A stretch of DNA of 48,692 nt. Source: a virus (lineage: Duplodnaviria > Heunggongvirae > Uroviricota > Caudoviricetes). Shown piece after piece: positions 55 through 47,161 of the stretch. The number at the start of each line of letters is the position of its first letter. The stretch's first letter is position 1. The stretch lies in the IMG/VR virus record IMGVR_UViG_2654588006_000004; one strand, 5' to 3'. Below the pieces are notes generated by a model, which saw only the letters and a list, made by a program, of their open reading frames with translations, did no database searches and had not been told where the DNA came from. A program made the position numbers and the translations under genes.

Positions 55-639
55 TTACTCCCTGACAGGATTTGCAGGCCACTCAATATCAGGTGCAGTT
101 GATGTATCAACACGGTTCAGCAATACCCGATACTTCTTCCAGGCTTCCAGCAACGACGCCTCTTCTTCCGTTGCGATCTCCAGATCTACAGCATCCTGAA
201 GCGGCGCTATATGCTCACTGGCTACCTGCATCAGGCTGTTTTTTGTTTCTTCCGCCTCCCGGATCCGGAACAGTTTTTCTGCTTCCGTATCCTTCACCCA
301 GACTGTACCGTTCCACTTCTGAAACTCCCCTTCCGGGGATAACCAGGTGACATTTTCCGGTAATGAGCCGAGTTCAGAAATAAATAACGCGTCGCCGGAA
401 GCCACGTCATAGACCGTTTTACCACGATGGTCTTCAACGAGATGCCACGATGCCTCATCACTGTTGAAAACAGCCACGAAGCCTGCCGGAATATCTGGCG
501 GTGCAATATCGGTACTGTTTGCAGGCAGACCTGTATGAGGCGGAATATATGCGTCACCTTCACCAATAAATTCATTAGTTCCGGCCAGCAGGTTATAAAT
601 TTTTATGGTCCGTGCTTGTTCACTCATTCTGAATGCCAT
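55..639 (-). CDS. tfaR: Tail fibre assembly protein (Tfa)
   Basis: 194-aa ORF immediately downstream of the side tail fibre gene; resembles lambda/Rac Tfa. Start codon overlaps the stf stop at 639. Confidence 0.85.
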
Positions 640-9617: not shown

Positions 9618-10316
9618 TTACTGCGAAAGTTTGTTAATGGAAAGGAAGCCGCCAAAGTTGCCGACATTATTGCGGAACTTACAGCCACTCAGGCATTTGC
9701 TGCATTTATCCTTCGTGATTTCGGATGTCGGCTGGTCATATTCATCCGCGACCGCCGGACCGTGATAACCGCACTCATCACCGCGATAGGTCCAGGTGCA
9801 GGTATTAGCAAGCATGATGCGCCCCGGAAAAACAGCGCCGTCCGTTTCCGTCGGCGTGGACAGTACAAAGGAGGCACTGACCGCGCTCAGTTCGCTGCAC
9901 TGCTCAATACGCCAGCGGCTGATCACCTCCTGCTCCGGATCGGCGTCACTGTTTCCGTTGACGAAGTTCACCGCATCCAGAAAACGGGCGTAAACCTTAC
10001 GCCTGACCACCGTTCCGCCGACCAGACTCTGCAGGTCTTCCGCCATCCCGGTGACCATGCCGTGCAGATTAGAGACTTTCAGCGTTGGCCTTGCACTGGC
10101 ACCTTTGCCGTTCATCTCAAATCCACTCCCCTGAATGGGATAGGCCTGATACTGCCGACTCTGCCAGGTGACAGACTCTCCTTTCTCGTTCTGCTCATTG
10201 CAGAAAAAGTAGCGATCCCCGCCTACCTCGGTCAGGTCGATTTCCCAGAGCACCACGCTGGCCGACTGCTCCGCACGAATGCATTCATTCAGCGTTTCCT
10301 GTTGTATGTCCTGCAT
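9618..10316 (-). CDS. L: Minor tail protein L
   Basis: 232 aa, same length as lambda L; C-terminal Cys cluster (CSKCLSGC); position between M and K. Confidence 0.9.
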   Translation of the reverse strand: MQDIQQETLNECIRAEQSASVVLWEIDLTEVGGDRYFFCNEQNEKGESVTWQSRQYQAYPIQGSGFEMNGKGASARPTLKVSNLHGMVTGMAEDLQSLVGGTVVRRKVYARFLDAVNFVNGNSDADPEQEVISRWRIEQCSELSAVSASFVLSTPTETDGAVFPGRIMLANTCTWTYRGDECGYHGPAVADEYDQPTSEITKDKCSKCLSGCKFRNNVGNFGGFLSINKLSQ

Positions 10317-10320
10317 CAGA

Positions 10321-10653
10321 TCACCACTTCGTCAAACTGACACGAAAAATCGGTATAGGTGATATGTTCTGTCGCTGACCACGTTCGACACACCACTCTG
10401 ATTTTTCTGTTAATACCAGGCGGGCGCCAAAAAAATATTTATAGCCTTCATGCCGGGCTAAAAATTTTTCAAATGAATCACGTTCATTCGCCTCAACTTT
10501 GAAATCACAGGTGAAAACGCGCAGAGAATGATTAAGTCCATTTGGACTTCGTTGCTCATAACCATCGCCAAATCTTACAGTTTTTATCGATGGTTTATTT
10601 TCTGTTTTCATTCCATCCTCTGGTAACCAGTGAAATTCTTCCGTATTAGCCAC
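10321..10653 (-). CDS. M: Minor tail protein M-like
   Basis: 110 aa; VRFGDGYEQRSPNGLN resembles lambda M VRFGDGYSQRAPAGLN; overlaps end of tape measure gene by 8 nt. Confidence 0.7.
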   Translation of the reverse strand: MANTEEFHWLPEDGMKTENKPSIKTVRFGDGYEQRSPNGLNHSLRVFTCDFKVEANERDSFEKFLARHEGYKYFFGARLVLTEKSEWCVERGQRQNISPIPIFRVSLTKW

Positions 10654-11386
10654 TTAACATTCCCCCATCACGTCGCATATTTAACAGATTGCCCTGCACC
10701 CGCTGATCAACCATCCCCATAAGTGCTTTTATTGCCTGAGGGCCAATCTCTCCATTCTGGCCGTCATTTTGAATAGTGATTTGGTATACAGGGGCATAGG
10801 TAATATCTCCGCCTCCATTACCACTTTTACTATTAATAGCTCTGACACCAAGAGAACCATCGGAAGTTCGTGTTAATGGCATAATGGCTTCCGGACCAGC
10901 CTCACCAAAAACACCAGCCCCTTTTGCAAAAGCAAAAAATTGCGGGGAATCATAAATACCGTTCGAATACGTGTTCAATGACGGAGACTCATAAACACCG
11001 CCCTTTGCATTCGGAATAAATTTACTAATAGCACTCCCGATAGTTCCTAAAATCCCCCCCGAAGAACTGTTACTAATGCTGTCGAAAATCCGAGTAATTG
11101 AAGCCTTTAATGCTATTCGACTAAGATCCGAAATCACGGAAGTAGCGAAAGAACGAAAATTTGCCTTGCCTGTCGTGACAAAATCACCCAGCGCATCGGT
11201 CATTCCATCAAACATCTGAGTCGTGGTTGATTTTATCTGCTCACTGATATCCTTAGTGTCATCCAGCCAGTTATTGAATCCCTGGGAGGAACCACTAACC
11301 CAGTCTCCTGCCTGAATATCGAGCTGCTCGTTTTTCTGTCTGACAATTTCTTTTTCTCGTTCCAGAGCATCATTCAGAGCCTGCAT
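10646..11386 (-). CDS. Tape measure protein, C-terminal segment (downstream of an in-frame TAG)
   Basis: 246-aa ORF in the same frame as the 828-aa ORF upstream, separated only by TAG + 2 codons; Gly-rich C-terminal region with GVFGEAGPEAIMPL-type motif. Confidence 0.6.
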   Translation of the reverse strand: MQALNDALEREKEIVRQKNEQLDIQAGDWVSGSSQGFNNWLDDTKDISEQIKSTTTQMFDGMTDALGDFVTTGKANFRSFATSVISDLSRIALKASITRIFDSISNSSSGGILGTIGSAISKFIPNAKGGVYESPSLNTYSNGIYDSPQFFAFAKGAGVFGEAGPEAIMPLTRTSDGSLGVRAINSKSGNGGGDITYAPVYQITIQNDGQNGEIGPQAIKALMGMVDQRVQGNLLNMRRDGGMLSG

Positions 11387-11392
11387 TTTCTC

Positions 11393-13879
11393 CTAAAAAA
11401 CATGATTTGACATCCCACGGGATTTATCTGCATAGTCACGTTCAAGTTGCAGACGCTGATTGTTATATTCACGTTCAATCCGCAGTAATTCCTGCTGGCG
11501 TTGCTGATTTTTATCGCCAACCCCATAACCAGCAATCTGAATATCATACCCCTGTTGACGATTATCAATCGAAGCCTGCAATGAATCACGCCATGCAGCT
11601 ATTTCGGCGGATTCCTTGATTAGCCTGTTATTTTTTTCAATCGCAACATTTTTCTCCATCAACGCGGTTATTTCTTCCCGGTGTAAGAGAAGCGATTTCT
11701 GATCCTTGGTTAATTTCGATGACGGTCGTGACTCCAGGTCGGCAATCTGCTGACGCCACTTAACCAGTTCCTGTTCAGAGGAACTTAATTTAACGGTTAA
11801 TTCAGTTTGTGAACTTAGTAACGCATTCTGTTGATTCAGATGATCAATCATTCGTTGGGCAGCATCATCCGAATAACCTTTCGCCTTTGGTTGCTTTGGA
11901 TCTTTATAACGCTCATTTATTTGAGCGATAAGATTATTATATTCTTCCTTTGAATACTGACTCTTTAGTTTTTCCAGTTTTGCAAGTTCACTAGCTCTCT
12001 GCTGCTCCCGGGTCTGATATTGTTTTGAAAAGGCATCTGCTCTCTGTCTGAGTTCAATTCCTTCCTGTTGTCGCTTGTTGTAATCGTTTATTGATGAATT
12101 TAGTACGTCCTGAGCAATTTTTTCTGCTTGAAGTACGCCCAATTGCTGCTTTAATCGTGCCAGCCTTTTATTTTGAGCTCCGCCATCTCCAATGCCACCT
12201 AACCCGAAAACTCCGGGTCGGGTATTTTTTTCTATTTCATCAATTTGACGGAGAACATCTGAGATTTTTTGATCAAGGGAGGCCTCACGGCCAATATCCA
12301 GCATGGAATCCCATGCCCATTTTGCGGAGTCTGCGACAGCTTTCCATGCAGTCTCAAGATAACCAAGATTTTCTTTAATCTGGTTGGTGCGCTGGATCAT
12401 TGAGGATGAGTATGCTTCTGTCGCAATGCGGGCGGCCTCCTGCTGGTTCCCTTCATCCTGTAGCGCCTTAATCTGGTTATAAGTCGCAATTGTCAGAAAA
12501 TGGTACTGATCATTAAGTTTTGATATGGCACTGACAGGATCCTTTGCAATTTCATTGAAGTCATTAACCAGTTGTTCGGTTGATATTCCTGTTACTTCGC
12601 TCGTTTTTACTATCGCTGTCGTCACTTGCTCCAGCGAACTGCTCGCTACCTTTCCCGAACGCACAAGCTGGTTTAATACTGCCGCCGCAGCGCCAGTTGT
12701 CGAATCAGCCGCATTCCCGGCACGTTGAGCTATATCGGCCAATTGCCCGCTGGTTGTCCCCAACTGATTTCCGGTAAGAATAAGAGATTTATTAAATTCG
12801 TCCTGCTCCTGAGAGCCTTTATAGTAAGCCAGCCCTAAGACGCCAACGGCTGCTGCGGCCAGGGTAAAAGGATTAATTAATCCCAGCACATAAGAACCAA
12901 CACCTTTGATCGCCGGGCCAATCCCACCGAACATATCTTTTAGCTGGCCGCCCTGCTGCATTAACACCATAAAAGGCGACTGACCAGTGGACAACCCAAC
13001 AACAATATCCGTCATTTGTGCAGGCAACATGCGCATAGCAAAAGCCGTTTGTTTTGCCGACATTCCGGTTTTGCTTAATTGAGATTGAGTAACCTCAAGC
13101 TCACTCCGCATAGCACGAAGTTTTCCAGAAAGTTCCTCATACATTTCAGGAGAGAGCATCCCCTTAGCTTTTGCTTCATTGAGCTGTTTCTGTTGTTCTA
13201 CCAGACGATTAAAAGCAGTTCCGACAGGGTCAAGTTGAGCAATCAGACGTTGCAAAGCAGCAACCTGTTCATCATGCGCTTTTGCTGCTTCTCGCTCTGC
13301 CTGAGCCTCTCCGGTAAGCTCTCGCCGTGTTTCCTGTATTTTTCGGCTATAATTCTCAAACTGAGAACCATTTATTTTCCCGGATGCAAACGCAGCATTA
13401 AGTTCATCCTGCTGTTGTTCAAGATTTCTTAGCGCCGCAACCAGAGGGTCGATCTTGTCCAGCATTCTTTGAAAGGCCTGAGCCTGCGATTCCTGCTGGG
13501 CGGCAGCAAGTTTTCCGGCCTTCTCGGCTTCTCTCTGCGCTTGCGCAACCCCGCTCAATTCCTCTGTGGTTTCATTAAGTTTACGGACAAGAAATTCATA
13601 TTCTTCTTTATCAATAAGCCCTTTATCGAAAAATTTCTTTAATTCAGAATAGCGTCGACCGACAGTATCAATTGCGGCACCAACTGGATCAATAGCTGCT
13701 TTTAATTTTGCGAGCGCGTTCTTCTCATCTTCTGTTGCCTTAGTCACTTTCCCTGCGCTATTTGCAGCAGTTTCCCCGGCCTGCGTCATTTTGACTAATG
13801 AGGAGGTCAGATTGTCAGCATTATTTTTTGCTCCAGTGCTATCAATAATTATTGCGAGACGCGAGGTTTGCTCTGCCAT
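11393..13879 (-). CDS. Tail tape measure protein, N-terminal 828-aa portion ending at an in-frame amber codon
   Basis: Long coiled-coil-rich ORF between G/T and M; ends ...SNHVF then TAG at 11393-11395. Confidence 0.75.
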
Positions 13880-18538: not shown

Positions 18539-19303
18539 TTAATCAACGATTGTGATACCGTCTTTCAATGCGTTTTGCTTACCTGCAACATCCAGTGCAT
18601 CAAAAGCAGAGCGTTTCATCGTTTTCTGACCAATATCATGCTGTGTCGGACGGGAGCCGCCGCCATTGTTGCCACTGGCTTTCAGGATGTAGTCTTTCTG
18701 AGGGTAATTTTCGACAAGGAACTCCAGCGCCTCATCAAACTGCGCCAGTTCGCCAGGCTTCGCGCGGGAATAAATTTTGTTGCCGGAAGCGTCATAAGCA
18801 ACGATCCTCCCTTCTTCCACTTTGAATGCCTGCCCGAAGCGGGCTTGTAATAAATCTGCCGGGATCGCAATTTTATCGGCAATATATTTTGAACCCGCAA
18901 AACTACCGCCAATCATAGAATCGTAAAGCTGCTTCTCCAGCATCTGAGAGCGTTGCTTTTCTTCATCTAATTGCTGCTGAAAATTTTTCGTAATTTCTGC
19001 CTTAACCTGGTCAACCTGTCCCGCATCGAGCAGCTTTTTCTGGTCGATTTTTGACAGCATTTCCAGTGCCTCGATCGCCTTCTTCGGGTCTTCGATAGCG
19101 GCAAACTTAGCCAGTTTTTCCTCTGCAGCTTCTTTAGCCAGGCGATGATTTTTTGCCTCGCCATTAAGCTCTGTAATTTTTTTTGTCGCCAGCGGTGCAT
19201 CGAAGCCAATTTCTTTACCATCGTCGTGCACATAAACTGGCAGGCCAGCAGTATCAATTTCTGCGTATTGTTTTCCGTTAATCTCGACCGTTTTCAGTTT
19301 CAT
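18539..19303 (-). CDS. Scaffolding protein (coiled-coil, acidic)
   Basis: Track ORF begins at 19375, but a terminator hairpin occupies 19369-19388; start at 19303 (MKLKTVEINGK...) is more likely. Charged, helical composition typical of scaffold proteins. Confidence 0.5.
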   Translation of the reverse strand: MKLKTVEINGKQYAEIDTAGLPVYVHDDGKEIGFDAPLATKKITELNGEAKNHRLAKEAAEEKLAKFAAIEDPKKAIEALEMLSKIDQKKLLDAGQVDQVKAEITKNFQQQLDEEKQRSQMLEKQLYDSMIGGSFAGSKYIADKIAIPADLLQARFGQAFKVEEGRIVAYDASGNKIYSRAKPGELAQFDEALEFLVENYPQKDYILKASGNNGGGSRPTQHDIGQKTMKRSAFDALDVAGKQNALKDGITIVD

Positions 19304-19360
19304 ATTAGTACCTGGTTTAAGTCTTCCGACAGTTACGCTGCTCACCATCCGGATCGCAGC

Positions 19361-19388
19361 AATAAAAAAGGCCACCCGAAGGTAGCCT
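19361..19388 (-). terminator. AGGCUACC-UUCG-GGUGGCCU hairpin plus U6 between Mu-F-like and scaffold genes
   Basis: Plus strand aataaaaaAGGCCACCcgaaGGTAGCCT; on the minus-strand RNA this is an 8-bp stem (one G-U), UUCG loop and UUUUUUAUU tract. Confidence 0.55.
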
Positions 19389-19407
19389 GTTGTAATAAAT
19401 GATTTAT

Positions 19408-20523
19408 TTAAATCCCTGCTTTTCTGAATACCTGTGCATCACGCTCACGGAGCTGCTTCAGCGTCAGCCATTCGCCTTTATCGGTGTAAAATTCATCTGG
19501 CGACATACCACCATCCCGAATCAGCTTTGCTCGGGTTTCCCCCACAATCTGTTTTTGTCTGGTGTAAGGCTGACGCAAAAACCATTCCCTGTAGGTTGTA
19601 TCTCCGGCCACCACGCCATCCATGCTGGCCCGCTCAGCCGGGGAAATATCGCGAACATCAATACCCAGTTCCTTCGCTGATTTCAGAATGAACGTTTCCG
19701 TTGAGCGGCAGCAGAAATGAATTTTTCCCGGCCCCTGCAAATAAGGCACGCTGTGACCTACAGGTTTATTATTCAGCGTATATTTGAGGCGATCCCTGAT
19801 TCGACATTGTGGCGTAGTACGATTATCAAGCGTTGATAACCATTGCTTACCCTTAATCAAATCATTATTCGCGCTGGCAAAACTCTCACGGGCAGTAGCA
19901 GCAAGATGTCCAACCGCTGTTTTTGCAATGCTGGCCGCATTAGCCCGGCTCATCTGCAATGCACCATCCTGAAATCCCTTACTGACATGTCCCCGAATTT
20001 TTCTTGCGATCTGCTCATTGGTATCCCCCAGCAAAAAACCCTGACGCACTGTATTTGTTATGCGTCTGAGCCGATCCGCCTCAAGATCTGAGGCCCACTC
20101 ACTGAGCAGTCGTCCCTGGAATGGTCGCGCCATTGCAGCGGCATAAAGTGCATCAGGAGAGATACCAACCAGAGGGTGAACATCAGCAACAAAATCAGGT
20201 AGCATAGAATCAAACAGACTTAACTGATAACCAGCCTCATAAATTGCCAGCTCGTTCAGCTCTCCGGAGAGACTGGTAAACATGCTGTTAATAGCAGTGC
20301 GGTTAACCTCTCTGACGCTCGCCAGAAGTGACTCCAGGCGCTTAACGGTAAAACTACCTGGATCGAGGCTGTCCAGTGCTATCAGCAGGCGAGCAGTAAG
20401 TTCCGCATCGCTGTCATTCAGTATTTTCACCATTCTGGCAGCCACGCCAGTGCTATAGCGGGATATCCAGACTGCATGAGCAATTGATTCATCACGCAGC
20501 CGTTCATTCACGGTTTGCATCAT
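19408..20523 (-). CDS. Head morphogenesis protein (Mu F / SPP1 gp7-like minor head protein)
   Basis: 371 aa immediately downstream of the portal gene, with 20-nt overlap; typical location and size for the Mu-F family. Confidence 0.6.
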   Translation of the reverse strand: MMQTVNERLRDESIAHAVWISRYSTGVAARMVKILNDSDAELTARLLIALDSLDPGSFTVKRLESLLASVREVNRTAINSMFTSLSGELNELAIYEAGYQLSLFDSMLPDFVADVHPLVGISPDALYAAAMARPFQGRLLSEWASDLEADRLRRITNTVRQGFLLGDTNEQIARKIRGHVSKGFQDGALQMSRANAASIAKTAVGHLAATARESFASANNDLIKGKQWLSTLDNRTTPQCRIRDRLKYTLNNKPVGHSVPYLQGPGKIHFCCRSTETFILKSAKELGIDVRDISPAERASMDGVVAGDTTYREWFLRQPYTRQKQIVGETRAKLIRDGGMSPDEFYTDKGEWLTLKQLRERDAQVFRKAGI

Positions 20524-30082: not shown

Positions 30083-30478
30083 CTAACCTCGCATGTCAAA
30101 GCCAGATTTCTGAAAATCTCTGTAGACTTCCGGATTGTTGAAGGCCGGAAATTTGGCTTTATGAGCTGCGGACTTTATCGCTTCGCAATAGGCTTTATCA
30201 CCGTTACTGGTAGATATTTTTAACGCCGTGCCATCCTGAGAGAATTCCATATGCAACCTGCATTTTTTCCCTTTCCAATTATGCGGCTCATCAAGTTTGG
30301 CATTAATTGCAGCTCTTATTCCCCGCGCTTGCGCCCCCCATTCATCCTGATCATCCCAGCGTCCTGAACTGCAACTACCTGTAGCAGTAGTTTTGTGGCA
30401 ATCTGAAGGGTGTAAAGGTGTGCATCCCGCAACAAAACCGACCCAAAAAGTCAACATAACGATTTTCTTTAATCCCAC
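30083..30478 (-). CDS. Lipoprotein with TolA-domain-III-like C-terminal domain (paralogue 2)
   Basis: 131 aa; lipobox VAGC; C-terminus KCRLHMEFSQDGTALKI...NPEVYRDFQ parallels the 142-aa neighbour. Confidence 0.6.
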   Translation of the reverse strand: MGLKKIVMLTFWVGFVAGCTPLHPSDCHKTTATGSCSSGRWDDQDEWGAQARGIRAAINAKLDEPHNWKGKKCRLHMEFSQDGTALKISTSNGDKAYCEAIKSAAHKAKFPAFNNPEVYRDFQKSGFDMRG

Positions 30479-30628: not shown

Positions 30629-31057
30629 TCAGGGTTTAAAATCCAGCACCCCATTTTGAAATACTTTATATACTTCCGGCGAAGGGGGGGCAGGTATATC
30701 AGCATTCTTTATCGCATTCATCGCTTCACGACATAAATCGAGGTCTCCACTTTCTCTTTTAACCTCCAGTAGAAGGCCATTCGGGGCCATATGCATTCTC
30801 AGTGTACACTCTTTTCCTGAATACTTACTCGCATCCCCGAACTGTTTTTCGATGGCGCTCTTGATTTGATGGGCATACAGACGGATATCCTCACTAACAT
30901 CAGAAGTACGTTCAGATGAACTCACATACTGTGTCTCTATTGCTTTATCGGAGTAATATGATGTACGGTCATGATAATTTGTCGATACAGCATCAGTGCA
31001 CCCGATAATAATCCCACTAATAATCAACGTAAGAATTGATGCGCTACGAAAACCCAT
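30629..31057 (-). CDS. Lipoprotein with TolA-domain-III-like C-terminal domain (paralogue 1)
   Basis: 142 aa; lipobox IIGC; C-terminal ~85 aa align closely with the recalled E. coli TolA C-terminus (QIKSAIE...CTLR...LAPDG.LL..K.E.GD..LC...PSP.VY.VF.N..LDFKP). Confidence 0.7.
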   Translation of the reverse strand: MGFRSASILTLIISGIIIGCTDAVSTNYHDRTSYYSDKAIETQYVSSSERTSDVSEDIRLYAHQIKSAIEKQFGDASKYSGKECTLRMHMAPNGLLLEVKRESGDLDLCREAMNAIKNADIPAPPSPEVYKVFQNGVLDFKP

Positions 31058-31645
31058 TTTTCCTCACATATGTCATATAGTAAAGGATTATATATACCGT
31101 TGTTTTGGACGCTCAAACAGCGAATCAGATCAAATAAAACGCACATTTGTTAACATTTACACAAAGTCTGCGTGGGATATTCTGAAAGAAGATCCATAAT
31201 GTGGAGAGAATCTATTGAAGTGCATGGTGCCGGGTGCCTCCCGGTGAACAAAATGTTCGTGATACCTGTCGGCGACAGAAAAGGTTAATGGTATCACCCC
31301 ACCGCACAGGGGGATTCACCATGCAGGAGTTTTCTTAGCAAACTCACTGCGCGCCCGGCAACTCCCAACCACATAAAATGCGGAGTTTGTGGCATTTATG
31401 CATATAACTCGCAGGAATTAACTTAAAAAACTGATGTCGATCCGGATTAAAAAGAAGCAGGTCATCATCAGATGACTGGAAAAAAGGAAAACAAAAAATA
31501 CTCATCATACCGTTTTGATTGCAGGGATGAGCCTGCTATGCACAATATGCAGAATATAAGCAAGATAAAAATATGCAGGCATATTATTTCGGATTTTGTT
31601 ATTAACACAACCTTTTTAATAATCATTTGGCATACAATAAACCAG

Positions 31646-32931: not shown

Positions 32932-33530
32932 TACGCAAACTCCAGTAGTTCTGCGGCCACATTTTCAACTTCCTCCTGAGAGGAGAATTTACGGAACAGA
33001 ATCCAGTTCCACAGCACATTCAGTACAGATTTATAAACCTGCCGAAACTCGACTTCGTCCATATTCGCAAAAGCGATGGATTTTGCCCGACGCCCACGGC
33101 TACCGTCCGGATAAATATGCTCGGTGTAAAATCCGGCCTGAATGGTTACCCACTCGCGGAAAGCCTCAAACGACTTTAGCAACGCCGTATCCCGGGTTCT
33201 ACGAGTCGCAACGGTGTTAAGGTATTGCTCTGCGGCTTCGCTCAGAGCTGGCGTATGTTCCCGGCCAACTGATTCACATAGGTAATCAACGAATCCTGAA
33301 ACCAGCTTTCGTTCGCGAGGCGTGATCGCCCCACCGACCGGAGTCCAGTAATCGAATCCCAGTTGCAGGAGTTTGAAAAAACGCTTGTGGAATGCGTAGT
33401 TACGCACACGCTTAAAGTCTGCGTGTATCCACTCGCCTATTTTGATTTGATGCAGAAAATCACAACTCTCCGGCGTCGCCGGGAGAAGTAATCCGGAAGA
33501 GGTTTGTTTGACCAGTTGTATATGCGCCAT
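32931..33530 (-). CDS. Conserved lambdoid nin-region hypothetical protein
   Basis: 199 aa; coupled to the downstream Cys-rich gene; family not verified. Confidence 0.45.
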   Translation of the reverse strand: MAHIQLVKQTSSGLLLPATPESCDFLHQIKIGEWIHADFKRVRNYAFHKRFFKLLQLGFDYWTPVGGAITPRERKLVSGFVDYLCESVGREHTPALSEAAEQYLNTVATRRTRDTALLKSFEAFREWVTIQAGFYTEHIYPDGSRGRRAKSIAFANMDEVEFRQVYKSVLNVLWNWILFRKFSSQEEVENVAAELLEFA

Positions 33531-34113
33531 TTCTCAATCTCTCGATGGCGCAGCGCAGCAGATGCCAGTTGTTCAGGCTGACGTATGAAGTATAAATAAA
33601 CTGGCTCCAGTGTAAAGCCCCCACCTTAATGGAATAAAAACCAAACAACAGATTGCTGGGATACAAACAACGCTTATTATTAAAAGCGGTTAAACAAATT
33701 AAATTTTAATGTTATGCAAATCTGCCAGATCACCATAATATCTCATTTGAAAACCGCTGAAATAACAACCCTACCAGGGTTAAGAATATTAAGGTGAGTA
33801 AATATGGAAAACAACAAATTTGCACATTACGTTCCTTTTTTATCTGTAATACTTTTTGTTTTATGCTGTGCGTGGGCATTATTTTTATAAAAATATTCAC
33901 AGATAAAATATACCTGCCAAAGCTGATTAAGTGCGGGTGCGTTGAGGAGGCCTGACACATCAGAGGTGGCGAGGGATTCTTCATCATCTAACCAGCAACC
34001 TTAACTTTGGGATTCACTAATTTAAGTACGCTAAAGGTGTTAAAACCCCGAGCCACCCAGGGACTGCTTGAAAAGTATATAAAAATCAATATCAACTATC
34101 GATTTTACCTAAA

Positions 34114-34127
34114 TGTTATGATATAAA
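34114..34127 (+). promoter_or_regulatory. Candidate extended -10 element (TGTTATGAT / TATAAA) for the island gene
   Basis: TG-n-TATGAT at 34114-34122, overlapping TATAAA at 34122-34127, about 60 nt upstream of the ATG; no good -35. Confidence 0.25.
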
Positions 34128-34184
34128 AAGTTAGCGTATCATTACGCATCCACAATATTCGAAGGTTTCCATATTCAATGTAAG

Positions 34185-36659
34185 ATGTCGACAAAGGCCT
34201 ATTATTCTATGGATATCATAACAAAAATCATTGAAGACGCTCAAAAATTACAGTTATCCTCTGCAAATGAAGCTGAAACACGCCTTAAGATCATAGATCA
34301 AATACTCTTTGAAGTATTGAAGTGGACTAGGGATGATGTATCGGTAGAAACTCGAGTTAGCGAAGATGGCGAGACTACTTTTGCTGATTATGTCATTAAA
34401 ACAGCAAGTACTGCGTTTATAATTGAAGCAAAAAAAATTGGTCAGGCATTCGACACAAAACAATTCGATAGGAGACTGAAACTCAACAACAATAATCTTT
34501 CCGGTCCTTTTGGAGATGCCATAATTCAAGCAAGAGATTATTGTAGAAAACTGAGCATTCAATTTGCTGTTGTAACTAATGGTGAACAATGGGTTATATT
34601 CCCAGCAAATAGAACGGATCAAGTTGCATTCAACTCATCTTACGCAATTGTATTTAACAATTTACAAAGTGCACTTAAAGATGACTATACAGAATTTTAT
34701 GACTTATTATCAAGAAAAGCAGTTATAAACTCTAGCCTTGAAGTTACTTTATTAGGCAACAGGGAAGATCAAATAGAAGAAAGACGCTTAAAAAATACAG
34801 TCCGTAAAAGTATCTCTTATGATGCAAAGAATCCAATATACCCATTAGTCGAAGAAGCAATTATCACTTCATTTTCAGATACAATAACAGAAATCGACAA
34901 TGATCTTTTTGAAAGATGTTATGTAAATACTCCTGACAGGATGAAATTTGATAGGCGTATTAATATGCACATATCAAAAAGTCAACACCTCTTTAGTACG
35001 GCGCCTATAAGACCGATGCAAAAAAGAGATGCTAATGTTTTTAAAGAATCACTATTACGAGCAAAAAAGAATTCAAAACCTTTAGCTATTGTTATATTAG
35101 GAACTGTTGGCGCAGGTAAAACCACATTTTTACATTACACACGAAATATATCTGCCGCATCGTATTTCGAAAAATCAAATAATAAACCCTATCCTCATTG
35201 GATAAAGGTGGATTTTTTACAATACACGAATGACGAGTCCCCTATAGACTACATTTATAATATAATAAAAAACTATATTATAAGTGATCCATTTTTTTGC
35301 AATTATGAGCTATGCATACAGAACGCATACAAAGATGAGATAACTTCTATAAAAAAAGGACCTGCATTTCTTATTGCGAAGGATGAAGAAAAAATCAATC
35401 AACTAATTACAAACAAGCTACAAGCTGATTTTGACAAAGTTAAGCCATATGCTGATACTTTAATCAGCTATGCAACGAAAAACACACCTGTTTTTCTTGT
35501 TGTGGATAACGTTGATCAACTCAGCGAAGAAGTCCAATCTCAAATTTTCACTGATTGTGTAGCATTTTCCCAGAGACTCAAATGTAATCTTGTTATATCA
35601 TTACGTAATTCTACATATGTTGAACACCGTAACTCCCCAGCGTTTAACGCATTTGATTTCGATCCTATTCTTATTGAACCACCAAAAGTAGAGGCTGTTT
35701 TATCTAAACGTTTTTTCTTAGCCAAAAATATGCTTGAAGGAGAAGAAGGTGATTTTCTTTCAGATAATGGGATAAGATTTCACGTTGATAACAAAGCCGA
35801 TTTAATAAGCTTATTACAAAGCTCTGTTTTAGGAACAGAAATCGGCAATTTACTTGAAGTACTTGCTGCCGGAGACATCAGAAATGCACTAAGAATGACA
35901 AGAGAATTTATTGAACATGGTTATACAAATCCAGGTAAAGCTATGCGAATATATAGTGAAGGTGGCAACTATATATTGCCTAAGCATGAGGCTCTCAGAG
36001 CGATACTGCTAGGGAACCAAGCTGTATATTCAGAGGCTTATTCATTGGTTGGCAACCCATTTGATTCAAGACTGGGAAGGACCAACTTCCAACTTTTGAG
36101 ACTATTCGTTTTAGCAGCATTAGTCCAATATAGTGCTGATCCTGCATTTCAATATATCGACGGAATTGACATCCGAAAACAACTTAGAAAAATTGGTGTC
36201 GGTGATGATGACTCAATTGCCATACTGCGTGATTTATGTAAATTACGCTTTATAAGCACGGCTGGTCATGATGTACCAGAATTCAAATCAAGTTTTTATC
36301 CTACAAGACTTGGGGGATATATTACTAAGGAGCTAATCAGTAATTTTACATTTGTTGAATGTACTATGATGGACTCATTCATTGCGAACGAAAAAGTTTG
36401 GGAAGATCTAAAAGGATTTGAACGTTTAATTATAAACTCCTCCAGCGATGTAATCAAAAGACTAGAATATAGAAAGGAACGAGCACAAATATTTTTTGAT
36501 TATATGCTAGAACTATATAGTTCGCTGCTTGAGGAAGCCAATAAACGTGTATTACCTAAAGAATGGCGCACCAATCCTTTGCAGGAAGCTAGATATTCCT
36601 TCATTGAAAATCTAAACAAAGCCCTGCAATCAGCACAGAGAAATTACGGGGAAAAATAA
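34185..36659 (+). CDS. Large nuclease/NTPase fusion: N-terminal HsdR-N/Mrr-like PD-(D/E)xK signature + P-loop NTPase + C-terminal helical domain; candidate defence protein
   Basis: 824 aa; FADYVIK...FIIEAKK (D68, E81, K83); Walker A GTVGAGKT (aa 306-313); Walker B-like VFLVVDNVDQL; sensor-2-like GDIRNALR; AT-rich; opposite strand to neighbours; own terminator. Confidence 0.7.
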   Translation: MSTKAYYSMDIITKIIEDAQKLQLSSANEAETRLKIIDQILFEVLKWTRDDVSVETRVSEDGETTFADYVIKTASTAFIIEAKKIGQAFDTKQFDRRLKLNNNNLSGPFGDAIIQARDYCRKLSIQFAVVTNGEQWVIFPANRTDQVAFNSSYAIVFNNLQSALKDDYTEFYDLLSRKAVINSSLEVTLLGNREDQIEERRLKNTVRKSISYDAKNPIYPLVEEAIITSFSDTITEIDNDLFERCYVNTPDRMKFDRRINMHISKSQHLFSTAPIRPMQKRDANVFKESLLRAKKNSKPLAIVILGTVGAGKTTFLHYTRNISAASYFEKSNNKPYPHWIKVDFLQYTNDESPIDYIYNIIKNYIISDPFFCNYELCIQNAYKDEITSIKKGPAFLIAKDEEKINQLITNKLQADFDKVKPYADTLISYATKNTPVFLVVDNVDQLSEEVQSQIFTDCVAFSQRLKCNLVISLRNSTYVEHRNSPAFNAFDFDPILIEPPKVEAVLSKRFFLAKNMLEGEEGDFLSDNGIRFHVDNKADLISLLQSSVLGTEIGNLLEVLAAGDIRNALRMTREFIEHGYTNPGKAMRIYSEGGNYILPKHEALRAILLGNQAVYSEAYSLVGNPFDSRLGRTNFQLLRLFVLAALVQYSADPAFQYIDGIDIRKQLRKIGVGDDDSIAILRDLCKLRFISTAGHDVPEFKSSFYPTRLGGYITKELISNFTFVECTMMDSFIANEKVWEDLKGFERLIINSSSDVIKRLEYRKERAQIFFDYMLELYSSLLEEANKRVLPKEWRTNPLQEARYSFIENLNKALQSAQRNYGEK

Positions 36660-36660
36660 A

Positions 36661-36700
36661 AAAAAGCCACACCTTACGGTGTGGCTCCTCTGTTGGTTTT
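36661..36700. terminator. Bidirectional intrinsic terminator between convergent genes
   Basis: A5-GCCACACC-TTAC-GGTGTGGC followed by TCCTCTGTTGGTTTT; A-run on the other side serves the minus strand. Confidence 0.7.
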
Positions 36701-36758
36701 ATAGGATCATTCCTTTTTGAGGTGGTCATTATATTCCCTATCTATTTTCCTGGCAATA

Positions 36759-37178
36759 CTAATTTCCTTGATAAAACGCCAGCACTCGCTGCATAGCTTC
36801 GCTTTTCCGGCACTCGCGACAGATTATGTTCAGACGCCTGTCGTAGCGGCGTATTTCTCCGTCTGGTAATGACCAGATAAGGTCCGGATCAACCACAGAT
36901 AGTTTCTTCACCTTTGCCCTAGATAGTTTTTTGCGGGCATTTTGCCAATCCTTACGAGCCTGTTCAGACGGGAATAACCCGTAACCAGAGTTGTATACAT
37001 CGCCACTGGCAACCAGCTCTCTGGCGAGAACGCTCATCAGATATCTTGTCGCACCTGTCTTGGCTTCCAGTTGCCGTAACGTCTCGCGCCCACTCCGGCG
37101 TACTAGCTCAACAACCTGCCCTTTAATTTTTTCCCGCTCTTCTTGTGTAAATACTTTTGCCATAAGCGCCTCCGGCAA
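36759..37178 (-). CDS. Hypothetical protein, possible HTH
   Basis: 139-aa ORF downstream of the ydaW-like gene; basic C-terminus. Confidence 0.45.
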   Translation of the reverse strand: MPEALMAKVFTQEEREKIKGQVVELVRRSGRETLRQLEAKTGATRYLMSVLARELVASGDVYNSGYGLFPSEQARKDWQNARKKLSRAKVKKLSVVDPDLIWSLPDGEIRRYDRRLNIICRECRKSEAMQRVLAFYQGN

Positions 37179-46764: not shown

Positions 46765-46959
46765 ATGAGATATGACAATGTTAAACCATGTCCATTTTGT
46801 GGTTGTCCATCAGTAACGGTGAAAGCCATTTCAGGATATTACCGAGCGAAGTGTAACGGATGCGAATCCCGAACCGGTTATGGTGGAAGTGAAAAAGAAG
46901 CACTCGAAAGATGGAATAAACGAACCACTGGAAATAATAATGGAGGTGTTCATGTATAA
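46765..46959 (+). CDS. ralR: Restriction alleviation protein RalR (Lar)
   Basis: 64 aa from MRYDNVKPCPFCGCPSVTVKAISGYYRAKCNGCESR... matches recalled RalR. Confidence 0.85.
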   Translation: MRYDNVKPCPFCGCPSVTVKAISGYYRAKCNGCESRTGYGGSEKEALERWNKRTTGNNNGGVHV

Positions 46960-47161
46960 AATTACCGCCACTATTGAAAAGGAAGGTGGCACTCCTACTA
47001 ACTGGACAAGATATTCAAAATCTAAACTAACGAAATCAGAATGCGAAAAAATGCTCTCAGGTAAAAAAGAAGCAGGCGTTTCCAGAGAGCAGAAAGTAAA
47101 ACTGATAAATTTTAATTGCGAGAAACTTCAGTCCTCGAGAATTGCATTGTATTCAAATTAA
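46952..47161 (+). CDS. ydaC: YdaC
   Basis: 69 aa from MYKITATIEKEGGTPTNWTRY...; GGAGG SD; overlaps ralR 3' end by 8 nt. Confidence 0.7.
   Translation: MYKITATIEKEGGTPTNWTRYSKSKLTKSECEKMLSGKKEAGVSREQKVKLINFNCEKLQSSRIALYSN

Follow-up and report, generated by a model that had tools for sequence, protein, structure and literature searches.

A viral sequence of 48,692 nt (IMG/VR record IMGVR_UViG_2654588006_000004; hereafter the window) carries an AT-rich block with one large gene read against the operon around it. The question that this locus raises is what the block is, what its gene encodes and how the product might act. The prophage in the window is complete and Rac-like and is identical to one in Escherichia coli strain 789; positions 33531-36700 match the corresponding locus of strain 789 at 100% identity, and the coding sequence there is WP_040091717.1.

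A single-gene insert in a Rac-like prophage

Comparison with Rac-like prophages whose cargo differs sets the cargo bounds at 33979-36760 (Table 1). The original prediction had placed the island at 33531-36700; the AT-rich insert is real, but the first 448 nt of that interval (33531-33978) are prophage backbone, found in 3431 of 5426 E. coli genomes. Because Hok/Gef adjoins this segment in other prophages, a hok/sok remnant was considered there and rejected, Rfam giving no match to the segment at either the gathering or the E <= 1 threshold. Consistent with the low GC that had been noted, GC content is 0.32-0.38 over 33500-36750 against about 0.50 on either side, and the proposed comparison with flanking genes gave a GC of 0.348 for the cargo and a GC3 of 0.25 for the gene, against 0.44-0.61 in its neighbours. 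Every flanking gene lies on the minus strand, so that the gene does run opposite to the surrounding operon, and the view of the insert as a horizontally acquired moron is supported. The gene occurs in 8 of the 5426 E. coli genomes, a rarity with which its supposed absence from the Rac prophage of K-12 is consistent.

Table 1. Features of the insert and its margins in window coordinates; residues follow the 824-aa numbering (start 34185).
Feature	Position	Strand	Basis or detail
Prophage backbone, not insert	33531..33978	.	GC 0.377, unannotated; 95% identical in other Rac-like prophages with different cargo
Cargo-specific upstream region	33979..34208	+	Homology to other Rac-like prophages stops at 33978
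DS-14 coding sequence, 816 aa, WP_040091717.1	34209..36659	+	ORF, RefSeq, homologue alignment
HsdR-N / type IIG-type PD-(D/E)xK nuclease	34260..34664 (aa 26-160)	+	D68, E81-A-K83, Q115xxxY119
Helical linker	34665..35054 (aa 161-290)	+	Model pLDDT <50 at 192-197, 207-213, 267-276
P-loop NTPase core	35055..35624 (aa 291-480)	+	Walker A GTVGAGKTT 306-314, Walker B VVDNVDQ 439-445, sensor-1-like R474
Helical lid	35625..36020 (aa 481-612)	+	AGDIRNALR motif
Winged-helix-like domain	36084..36329 (aa 634-715)	+	Three helices, then beta hairpin
C-terminal helical region	36330..36656 (aa 716-824)	+	Three long helices in model
GC-rich hairpin, tail-to-tail with DUF977 gene	36660..36700	.	Folding; conserved with gene in Serratia
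Cargo right end	36701..36760	.	Backbone homology restarts at 36761, the DUF977 stop codon

The cargo-specific region upstream of the gene presumably holds its own promoter. By eye, a candidate extended -10 element (TGaTATAAA) can be placed at 34119-34127; the promoter scan listed no -35/-10 pair in 33979..34208, and this region is not common to the copy of the gene found in a Serratia P2-like prophage. At the other end, the hairpin described as a perfect bidirectional terminator is real and has a perfect stem of 9 bp, folding at -18.4 kcal/mol on the plus strand (z -3.3) and at -21.8 kcal/mol on the minus strand (z -5.3). It has a proper U-tract for minus-strand transcripts only, and because the plus-strand tail after the hairpin, UCCUCUGUUGGUUUU, is weak, the earlier description was overstated: the element is predicted to be a strong intrinsic terminator for minus-strand transcripts of the prophage early operon and a weaker one for the transcript of the gene itself. 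In the Serratia prophage the hairpin is kept along with the gene, homology reaching 36728; gene and terminator travel as one unit between very different temperate phages.

Elsewhere, the same Rac slot contains an OLD/HEC-04-like ATPase nuclease with a cytosine methyltransferase and, in other prophages, Hok/Gef toxins; in E. coli the gene sits in a Rac-prophage slot that exchanges defence cargos. The best explanation of the insert is a self-contained defence moron that occupies a cargo-exchange slot of the Rac-like prophage and brings its own promoter region, single gene and terminator.

The gene product and its published phenotype

By sequence, the window protein is identical to DS-14 (working name RMOR), a one-gene anti-phage system reported in the DefensePredictor study (Science 2026; PMC13092281; preprint 10.1101/2025.01.08.631726), so the gene is already known. 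The protein fragments printed in Tables S6 and S8 of that study match the window ORF from M9, with no difference at the protein level, and in Table S6 WP_040091717.1 is entered as RMOR (DS-14) and scored TRUE for both defensive and replicated. Searching full texts for the accession gave nothing; it appears in the supplementary tables only. The original prediction of a single-gene antiphage defence protein has therefore been borne out by experiment on the same protein, whereas its description of that protein as undescribed does not hold: WP_040091717.1 had already been published, and the study assigns the same two domains to it: PDDEXK/BpuSI_N (residues 27-167) and AAA+/ORC1-like (residues 270-569) (PMC13092281). 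A defence gene read from sequence alone and confirmed by an independent experimental study is a positive control for such scans.

The published DS-14 derives from another E. coli strain (contig NZ_QOZC01000013.1). Constructs were carried on a low-copy plasmid with native promoters, and the clone of DS-14, driven by the predicted region of its native promoter, was active (PMC13092281). Challenge of such a clone with a phage panel, which the original prediction had called for, had thus been done: -log10 EOP was 4.70 for Bas50, 3.70 for Candy and 1.15 for RB69 (Table S7, PMC13092281), which amounts to 10^3.7-10^4.7 protection on Candy and Bas50. Bas50 is a Vequintavirus and Candy belongs to the Tevenvirinae; T4, although in the panel, does not figure in the record of phages that RMOR restricts (PMC13092281). 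DS-14 is undiscussed in the main text, and in the available text and tables of PMC13092281 we found no experiment on its mechanism, no mutants and no account of its genomic slot, family-wide conservation, prophage distribution or full domain map.

The longest ORF, 34185..36659 on the plus strand, had been given as an 824-aa gene. It is present with every motif quoted, but the true start is likely the ATG at 34209, giving 816 aa, because it is the start used by RefSeq and DS-14, homologues have their N termini at this point in alignments, and the Serratia copy is homologous at the DNA level from 34208 onwards. Hundreds of full-length homologues rule out a chance ORF or a pseudogene.

The DS-14 family is large, with more than 580 clusters at 50% identity across Proteobacteria. 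Five unrelated prophage types carry the gene (Rac-like, P2-like, PM2-like, siphovirus-type and inovirus), the P2-like copy occupying the tin/old position, and the GC content of the gene is 12-24 points below that of its flanks in every host. In nine contexts, including the window, it is always solo, with no conserved partner and no methyltransferase. A tblastn search of 50,697 phage genomes gave no match; the gene lies on prophages and is absent from those phage records. In PHROGs the full-length match is phrog_14719, function unassigned. PADLOC v2.0.0, run on the protein and 43 distant relatives, returned weak single-domain matches only (DrmMI N-terminus, PDC-M54B and the mad8 NTPase); mad8 membership was rejected, the match covering the NTPase region only with a best E of about 1e-6.

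This distribution bears on whether DS-14 is mainly antiphage at all. Carriage by five kinds of temperate phage, a slot that elsewhere contains Hok/Gef toxins and solo chromosomal copies in Marinomonas that adjoin toxin-antitoxin genes would suit a role in mobile-element competition or maintenance (plasmid or satellite exclusion, or addiction), with the plaque effect secondary. We regard such a role as very improbable, given the degree of protection against virulent phages from a low-copy plasmid and native promoter, the absence of an antitoxin-like partner in the contexts surveyed, and several solo copies that lie between housekeeping genes with 10-kb flanks free of mobile-element genes.

Domain architecture and conservation

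The N-terminal D...ExK signature had been assigned to a PD-(D/E)xK nuclease of HsdR-N type. Consistent with this assignment, the core has an alpha-beta-beta-beta-alpha-beta fold that matches HsdR-type nuclease domains, Pfam HSDR_N_2 scores 26.7 bits (a small margin over its cut-off of 25) and 37 of 40 members match it at E <= 0.01. No substitution occurs at D68, E81, K83, Q115 or Y119 in 40 close or 43 distant members, and the nuclease is the best-conserved part of the protein, with no hypervariable sensor seen. The same fold, D...ExK signature and RecB-type QxxxY motif occur in type I HsdR and type IIG/ISP nucleases (EcoR124I HsdR, BpuSI, DrdV and MmeI). DS-14, however, has no SF2 translocase, methyltransferase or specificity subunit, and is therefore not a restriction-modification enzyme; neither Pfam nor NCBIfam finds an SF2 helicase or translocase after the nuclease, where the central module is an AAA+/STAND-like NTPase, and HsdR and R-M membership are ruled out by the missing helicase and methyltransferase.

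The Walker A, Walker B-like and sensor-2-like motifs are conserved as well: G306-T314, D441/D444 and D564/R566 are invariant in the 40 homologues, R566 nearly so across the family. Most catalytic and motif residues are also invariant in the 43 members at 21-49% identity, far beyond chance, such that nuclease and NTPase sites are both strictly conserved in this family. Between strand 2 and Walker B, the NTPase has an insertion of helices about 80 aa long. Walker B itself has an invariant Asn in place of its second acidic residue (D441-N442); for this reason, hydrolysis may be slow or unusual.

Structurally, the NTPase module is closest to AAA+ proteins of the Cdc6/ORC type, the alignments (265-280 residues) spanning base and lid. 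A base, a lid with a sensor-2 Arg and a winged helix, with Cdc6/ORC as best structural matches, liken it to the AAA+ initiator clade. The NTPase, lid and winged helix together also resemble TnsC, BrxC, CED-4/Apaf-1 and NLRs, which like Cdc6/ORC are NTP-dependent assemblers, and a sensor-2/lid motif of the GDIRNALR type is a typical AAA+ feature, not a STAND one. Pfam KAP_NTPase gives a marginal 23.8 bits over aa 291-454 (cut-off 20; 28 of 40 members match), overlapping AAA_16 and nSTAND5 matches of similar strength; NACHT matches 7 of 40 members weakly; PDB searches with the protein and the family profile returned P-loop noise only, and NCBIfam nothing useful.

Where about 250 aa of helical sequence had been predicted at the C terminus, the model gives the lid, a winged helix of about 80 aa and a helical tail of about 110 aa, so the tail is present but only about 190 aa follow the lid. 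Pfam finds no C-terminal repeat family (TPR, WD40 or similar). Together with the winged helix and the linker (mean pairwise identity 0.20 among distant members, among the lowest of the domains), the C-terminal region (0.21) is one of the least conserved parts, and its helices (aa 716-824) are in the model a candidate sensor or oligomerisation element.

The division of labour between the two conserved sites could be read in another way, as an abortive system centred on the NTPase. The PD-(D/E)xK domain would then serve to bind DNA or to sense, not to kill, and protection would come from NTP consumption or from a block of replication or packaging complexes. KAP-type and AAA+ NTPases can defend through Walker-motif-dependent activity with uncharacterised effector regions, and DS-41, a Cdc6-like AAA+ protein, defends with no nuclease domain annotated in the Table S8 rows examined (PMC13092281). 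We nevertheless consider this reading improbable: D68, E81, K83, Q115 and Y119 persist down to 21% identity, and a complete invariant catalytic set argues for a probably active nuclease over a degenerate binding domain.

Proposed mechanism and relation to known systems

We favour, at a probability of about one half, a model in which DS-14 is an NTPase-gated nuclease that responds to a phage cue in an NLR/Avs-like manner. DS-14 would be made in the lysogen and kept inactive. When certain large virulent myoviruses infect, the C-terminal winged-helix and helical part would sense a cue from the phage; the central Cdc6/ORC- and STAND-like NTPase would bind NTP and drive oligomerisation, and the N-terminal HsdR-type domains, brought together, would cut DNA. 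The phage would be stopped and possibly the host too, as in NLR/Avs-like abortive responses. In this model we infer that both nuclease and NTPase activity are needed, that the protein oligomerises, what kind of trigger it answers and which DNA it cuts. A specific trigger would suit the narrow and patchy range of phages. Also in favour of this model, the authors' HHblits search gave NLR_like_bNACHT09 as the nearest known system (probability 99, 54% of DS-14; PMC13092281), and REase-NACHT proteins such as bNACHT25 work in this way. Counting against it are the short region after the lid in place of a large Avs-type repeat sensor, best structural matches to DNA-loading AAA+ proteins (Cdc6/ORC, TnsC) rather than NLRs, which direct DNA sensing fits too, and Asn442 in Walker B.

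Direct DNA sensing is a possible, if less probable, reading. The Cdc6/ORC-like AAA+ module with its winged helix would load on phage DNA in an ATP-dependent manner and license the HsdR-type nuclease, the cue being a modification, a replication intermediate or DNA ends; there would be no phage protein trigger, the host would survive, and DS-14 would be a type IV-like or NTP-dependent restriction enzyme that has no methyltransferase. A nuclease of type I / type IIG restriction type that is the most conserved part of the protein, no hypervariable sensor and no methyltransferase nearby all agree with this. Tevenvirinae DNA carries modified cytosines, and two of the three restricted phages on record are Tevenvirinae; yet T4 is missing from the recorded range, and the best-restricted phage is the Vequintavirus Bas50, which is not known to carry hypermodified DNA. 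The HHblits relation to an NLR-like system and a winged helix as the sole evident DNA-recognition domain also weigh against it. More doubtful still is that DS-14 founds a class apart from Avs and bNACHT, as an ORC-like loader on phage DNA or on replication or packaging intermediates of large myoviruses that licenses an HsdR-type nuclease without self-marking by methylation; if true, this would be an "origin-recognition-like" restriction mechanism in a family of that size, on at least five prophage types. For the NTPase-gated nuclease that we favour, as for its rivals, mutants, susceptible phages and the hotspot are concrete handles for mechanistic work, and no new question is opened.

Among known systems, KAP proteins (PifA, EF_KAP, QatA and PDC-S20, with Tmn a related YobI-type protein) share with DS-14 an NTPase joined to an effector region, antiphage activity and a long helical insert that separates Walker A from Walker B. 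Transmembrane helices in or near the NTPase domain are typical of many KAP proteins, if not universal; in DS-14 no transmembrane span was seen in the insert (aa 344-435), whose helices are amphipathic and charged in the model and in the sequence as judged by eye. Moreover, DS-14 gives no match to the PADLOC models of PifA and QatA, and its KAP_NTPase score compares with 189 bits for a true KAP protein, PDC-S20 in the Serratia prophage. Cdc6/ORC, TnsC and BREX BrxC are only 9-14% identical to DS-14 in sequence; all of them lack a nuclease domain, and they belong to other processes, namely replication licensing, transposition target selection and BREX.

The "Avs/STAND-like" label of the original prediction finds only loose support. 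Avs/AVAST proteins (Avs3, Avs4 and Avs7) likewise combine an effector nuclease, an NTP switch and a C-terminal sensing region and are often on prophages; by contrast, DS-14 matches no PADLOC Avs or NLR model and lacks a repeat sensor (TPR or other) that reaches 400 aa, the minimum size of sensors in the STAND survey of Lee et al.; WP_040091717.1 was not found in the available part of the supplement text of that survey. From bNACHT proteins, DS-14 differs in its best structural matches, in the GDxR lid motif and in a short, different C-terminal region. REase-NACHT (bNACHT25), however, is arranged in the same way, as one antiphage polypeptide with an effector of restriction-endonuclease fold at its N terminus and an NTPase in the centre, and its nuclease is toxic when the NTPase is hyperactivated.

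Identity of the gene product and limits of its insert

The open reading frame 34185..36659 (+), which the original prediction read as a candidate undescribed nuclease–NTPase defence gene, exists, and all the motifs quoted for it were found in its translation. Because the sequences are identical, its product is identified as DS-14, a validated defence system that was already known: WP_040091717.1, which RefSeq assigns to this coding sequence, had been published under that name in the DefensePredictor paper (Science 2026; preprint January 2025; PMC13092281). The protein is therefore not undescribed, and the proposed single-gene antiphage role has been validated experimentally for the identical protein (PMC13092281). 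Table S6 of that source lists WP_040091717.1 (working id RMOR) with a maximum log-odds of 14.7, as "Remote defense homolog", defensive TRUE and named DS-14, and another sheet marks RMOR as replicated TRUE. Candidate units with their predicted native promoters were assayed on a low-copy plasmid in MG1655 against 24 phages, and RMOR gave –log10 EOP values of 4.70 on Bas50 (Vequintavirus), 3.70 on Candy (Tevenvirinae) and 1.15 on RB69 (PMC13092281). The main text does not single out DS-14, and mutants, a trigger or biochemistry for it were not found in the text and tables covered. That the gene chiefly serves some purpose other than defence against phages is very improbable.

DS-14 probably starts at ATG 34209, giving 816 aa: this codon is used by RefSeq and by the published clone, the N termini of homologues align at that position, and at the DNA level the match with the Serratia copy starts at window 34208.

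The window is a complete Rac-like prophage, extending from intR to tfaR, that includes racR, ydaS-V, recET, kilR, sieB and trkG; the stretch compared, 33531-36700, is 100% identical to the matching prophage in E. coli strain 789, which was isolated from a turkey with septicaemia. The predicted AT-rich block is evident (GC 0.32–0.38 over 33500-36750 versus about 0.50 either side; cargo GC 0.348; gene GC3 0.25 versus 0.44–0.61 in neighbouring genes), and the gene runs opposite to its surroundings, with every flanking gene on the minus strand. The insert is real, but its proposed edges, 33531 and 36700, needed correction: comparison with three other Rac-like prophages placed the break in backbone homology at 33978 and its return at 36761, so that the insert is 33979-36760. 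The first 448 nt of the proposed island occur in 3,431 of 5,426 complete E. coli genomes, versus only 8 for the DS-14 gene. A 99.5% identical copy of the insert in E. coli strain C8 (H5, a genome-search match; NZ_CP010125.1 1955320-1958487) carries two hypothetical proteins in its annotation in place of one, a sign that DS-14 may be disrupted there.

The hairpin at 36660-36700, predicted to terminate in both directions, is strong (–21.8 kcal/mol on the minus strand, z –5.3), but the terminator scan scored it for minus-strand transcripts only, on which the U8 tract lies, and it is weaker for the DS-14 gene. Given this score and its position, where the insert gene and the DUF977 gene meet tail to tail, its main role would be to shield the DS-14 gene from early-operon read-through, with a weaker terminator function for DS-14 itself. 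Overall, the original observations were confirmed with small corrections, and their interpretation was largely right.

Features of the window, of the DS-14 structure model (824-aa numbering) and of the contexts of the gene
Feature	Position	Remarks
IS009	98-296 (-)	Rfam match above gathering score
Tape-measure and next tail gene	~10316-13879 (-)	In the record of strain 789, which is identical, the first has an internal stop and the second a frameshift; the prophage, though otherwise complete-looking, is therefore probably defective
TolA / TolA C-terminal-domain proteins	30629-31057 (-), 30083-30457 (-)	By annotation; speculatively, a phage-borne decoy against colicins or filamentous phages
STnc100 sRNA	31168-31354 (-)	Rfam match above gathering score
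Backbone segment	33531-33978	448 nt, GC 0.377 (AT-rich), unannotated; adjoins Hok/Gef in other prophages; several terminator-like minus-strand hairpins; no Rfam family match
Promoter-like site	33616-33589	Within backbone segment, directed at DUF1367 gene
RalA	46958-47136 (-)	Antitoxin RNA for RalR toxin; Rfam match above gathering score
Alpha-beta-beta-beta-alpha-beta N-terminal domain	aa 26-160	Model
Helical linker	Between N-terminal domain and P-loop core	Model
P-loop core	aa 291-480	Model; ~80 aa of helices inserted ahead of Walker B
Helical lid	aa 481-612	Model
Winged-helix-like unit	aa 634-715	Model
Three long C-terminal helices	After winged-helix-like unit	Model
Rac-like prophage	Window
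Serratia P2-like prophage	Flanked by portal gene Q and replication gene A	P2 tin/old position
Vibrio europaeus	PM2-like prophage region
P. syringae tailed prophage	At its end, past lysis genes
Kerstersia inovirus prophage	At its end, past zot and secretin gene
P. putida, Shewanella, Gallaecimonas	Amid housekeeping genes	Single-gene insertions
Marinomonas	Amid housekeeping genes, beside HigBA and Fic	Single-gene insertion

Cargo exchange and mobility of the gene

In Rac-like prophages, the interval that separates the DUF977 gene from the DUF1367 gene (window 33530-36761) is a cargo-exchange hotspot. At the comparison loci in other E. coli strains (L002 6466-9660; L010 5469-7980; L011; L012), it holds either Hok/Gef with a 609-aa ABC-ATPase nuclease and a C5 methyltransferase, or Hok/Gef with proteins of 310 and 184 aa. 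The 609-aa nuclease matches PADLOC HEC-04 (1.5e-34) and also ATPase-Toprim, AriA, PtuA, GajA and Old-like models; the 310-aa and 184-aa proteins have no Pfam or PADLOC match and are possible defence candidates.

The DS-14-family gene stands alone in every context examined, with no conserved neighbour or methyltransferase beside it in the window or in eight other contexts, and its GC lies 12–24 points under that of its flanks in 8/8 other hosts. Homology to the Serratia copy spans the coding sequence and terminator to 36728 and does not include the upstream region. The Serratia P2-like prophage (L003/L004) carries, besides a homologue 88% identical to DS-14, a KAP NTPase of 443 aa (18827-20158) whose gene lies between cI and int (PADLOC candidate PDC-S20, E 8e-178; PifA-like, 4e-20), and thus two NTPase-type defence cargos. 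In Kerstersia gyiorum (L015 894-12463), a family member of 50% identity ends a prophage of inovirus type (integrase, Rep_trans, Zot, secretin), an unusual cargo for a filamentous phage. Small additions to the prior DS-14 report are the exact insert edges, the Rac hotspot, the residues invariant across the family, the presence on five types of prophage and the unit formed by gene and terminator.

Domains, conservation and proposed mechanism

A word-index search returned 595 homologues, none informatively named, from E. coli, Serratia, Hafnia, Vibrio, Pseudomonas, Shewanella, Endozoicomonas and others; the best 120 of 595 are nearly all full-length. When 1.84 billion cluster representatives were searched exhaustively with a profile, 2,078 matched at E ≤ 1e-3, and 585 of these did so at E ≤ 1e-30; most measure 800–870 aa and align end to end. 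No solved structure related to DS-14 by sequence was found, and its full length was modelled with AlphaFold from a 40-sequence alignment (mean pLDDT 82). The predicted HsdR-N-type PD-(D/E)xK nuclease domain at the N terminus is borne out by its fold, its motif and an HSDR_N_2 score of 26.7 bits (Pfam cut-off 25), and the domain is of the HsdR-N / type IIG type. HHpred assignments by the DefensePredictor authors, PDDEXK (BpuSI_N, residues 27-167, probability 0.99) and AAA+ ATPase (ORC1 7MCA_A, residues 270-569, probability 0.99) (PMC13092281), agree with our independent domain results.

Across 43 members at 21–49% identity, E29, R33, W47, E55, D68, Y69, E81, A82, K83, Q115, Y119, N132, G133, G306, G311, K312, D441, N442, D444, R474 and N624 are invariant, so that the second residue of Walker B is always Asn. 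Judged by this invariance, strict selection acts on the nuclease set (D...ExK and RecB-type QxxxY) as well as on the NTPase set (Walker A, Walker B, sensor-1-like Arg). An NTPase-centred mechanism with a non-catalytic nuclease fold is contradicted by the invariant catalytic residues and is unlikely. Conservation is highest in the nuclease domain and lowest in the linker, winged-helix domain and C-terminal helices, with no hypervariable region among the domains compared.

The identity of DS-14, its defence phenotype, both folds, the conservation of both active sites and single-gene autonomy are established. For its action we favour, with a probability of roughly 0.5, an NLR-like scheme, supported by an HHblits link to a bNACHT system (NLR_like_bNACHT09, the authors' nearest known system, covering 54% of the protein; PMC13092281), by REase–NACHT precedent such as bNACHT25 and by a phage range that is narrow and patchy. 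DS-14 would be produced in the lysogen and remain idle until a cue from an infecting phage acted on the winged-helix unit and C-terminal helices; the NTPase would then bind nucleotide and oligomerize, and the clustered nuclease domains would cut DNA. The main rival, possible though less probable, is a methylase-less restriction enzyme, in which a Cdc6/ORC- and TnsC-like module loads directly, in an ATP-dependent manner, on phage DNA before cleavage. Its structural neighbours (Cdc6/ORC, TnsC) and the lack of a large sensor argue for direct loading, whereas PMC13092281 records no restriction of T4 in its RMOR rows, and Bas50, the phage restricted best, is a Vequintavirus.

Relation to known systems

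Identity as HsdR or a restriction–modification enzyme was rejected, as DS-14 has neither helicase nor methyltransferase. Among 40 homologues, Pfam matched HSDR_N_2 in 37, nSTAND5 in 37, AAA_16 in 36, KAP in 28 and NACHT in 7. DS-14 itself is formally above the KAP_NTPase cut-off of 20, but only marginally (23.8 bits, versus 189 for the genuine KAP defence candidate of the Serratia prophage), and membrane helices, a common feature of KAP proteins, were not seen on inspection of its sequence and model. The original comparison with Avs/STAND systems is loosely supported: neither DS-14 nor its relatives matched the PADLOC Avs and NLR models, nSTAND5, like AAA_16 and AAA_22, falls under its Pfam cut-off on DS-14, and a large repeat sensor is absent. 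We therefore rejected filing DS-14 under Avs, although it may work in an Avs-like manner.
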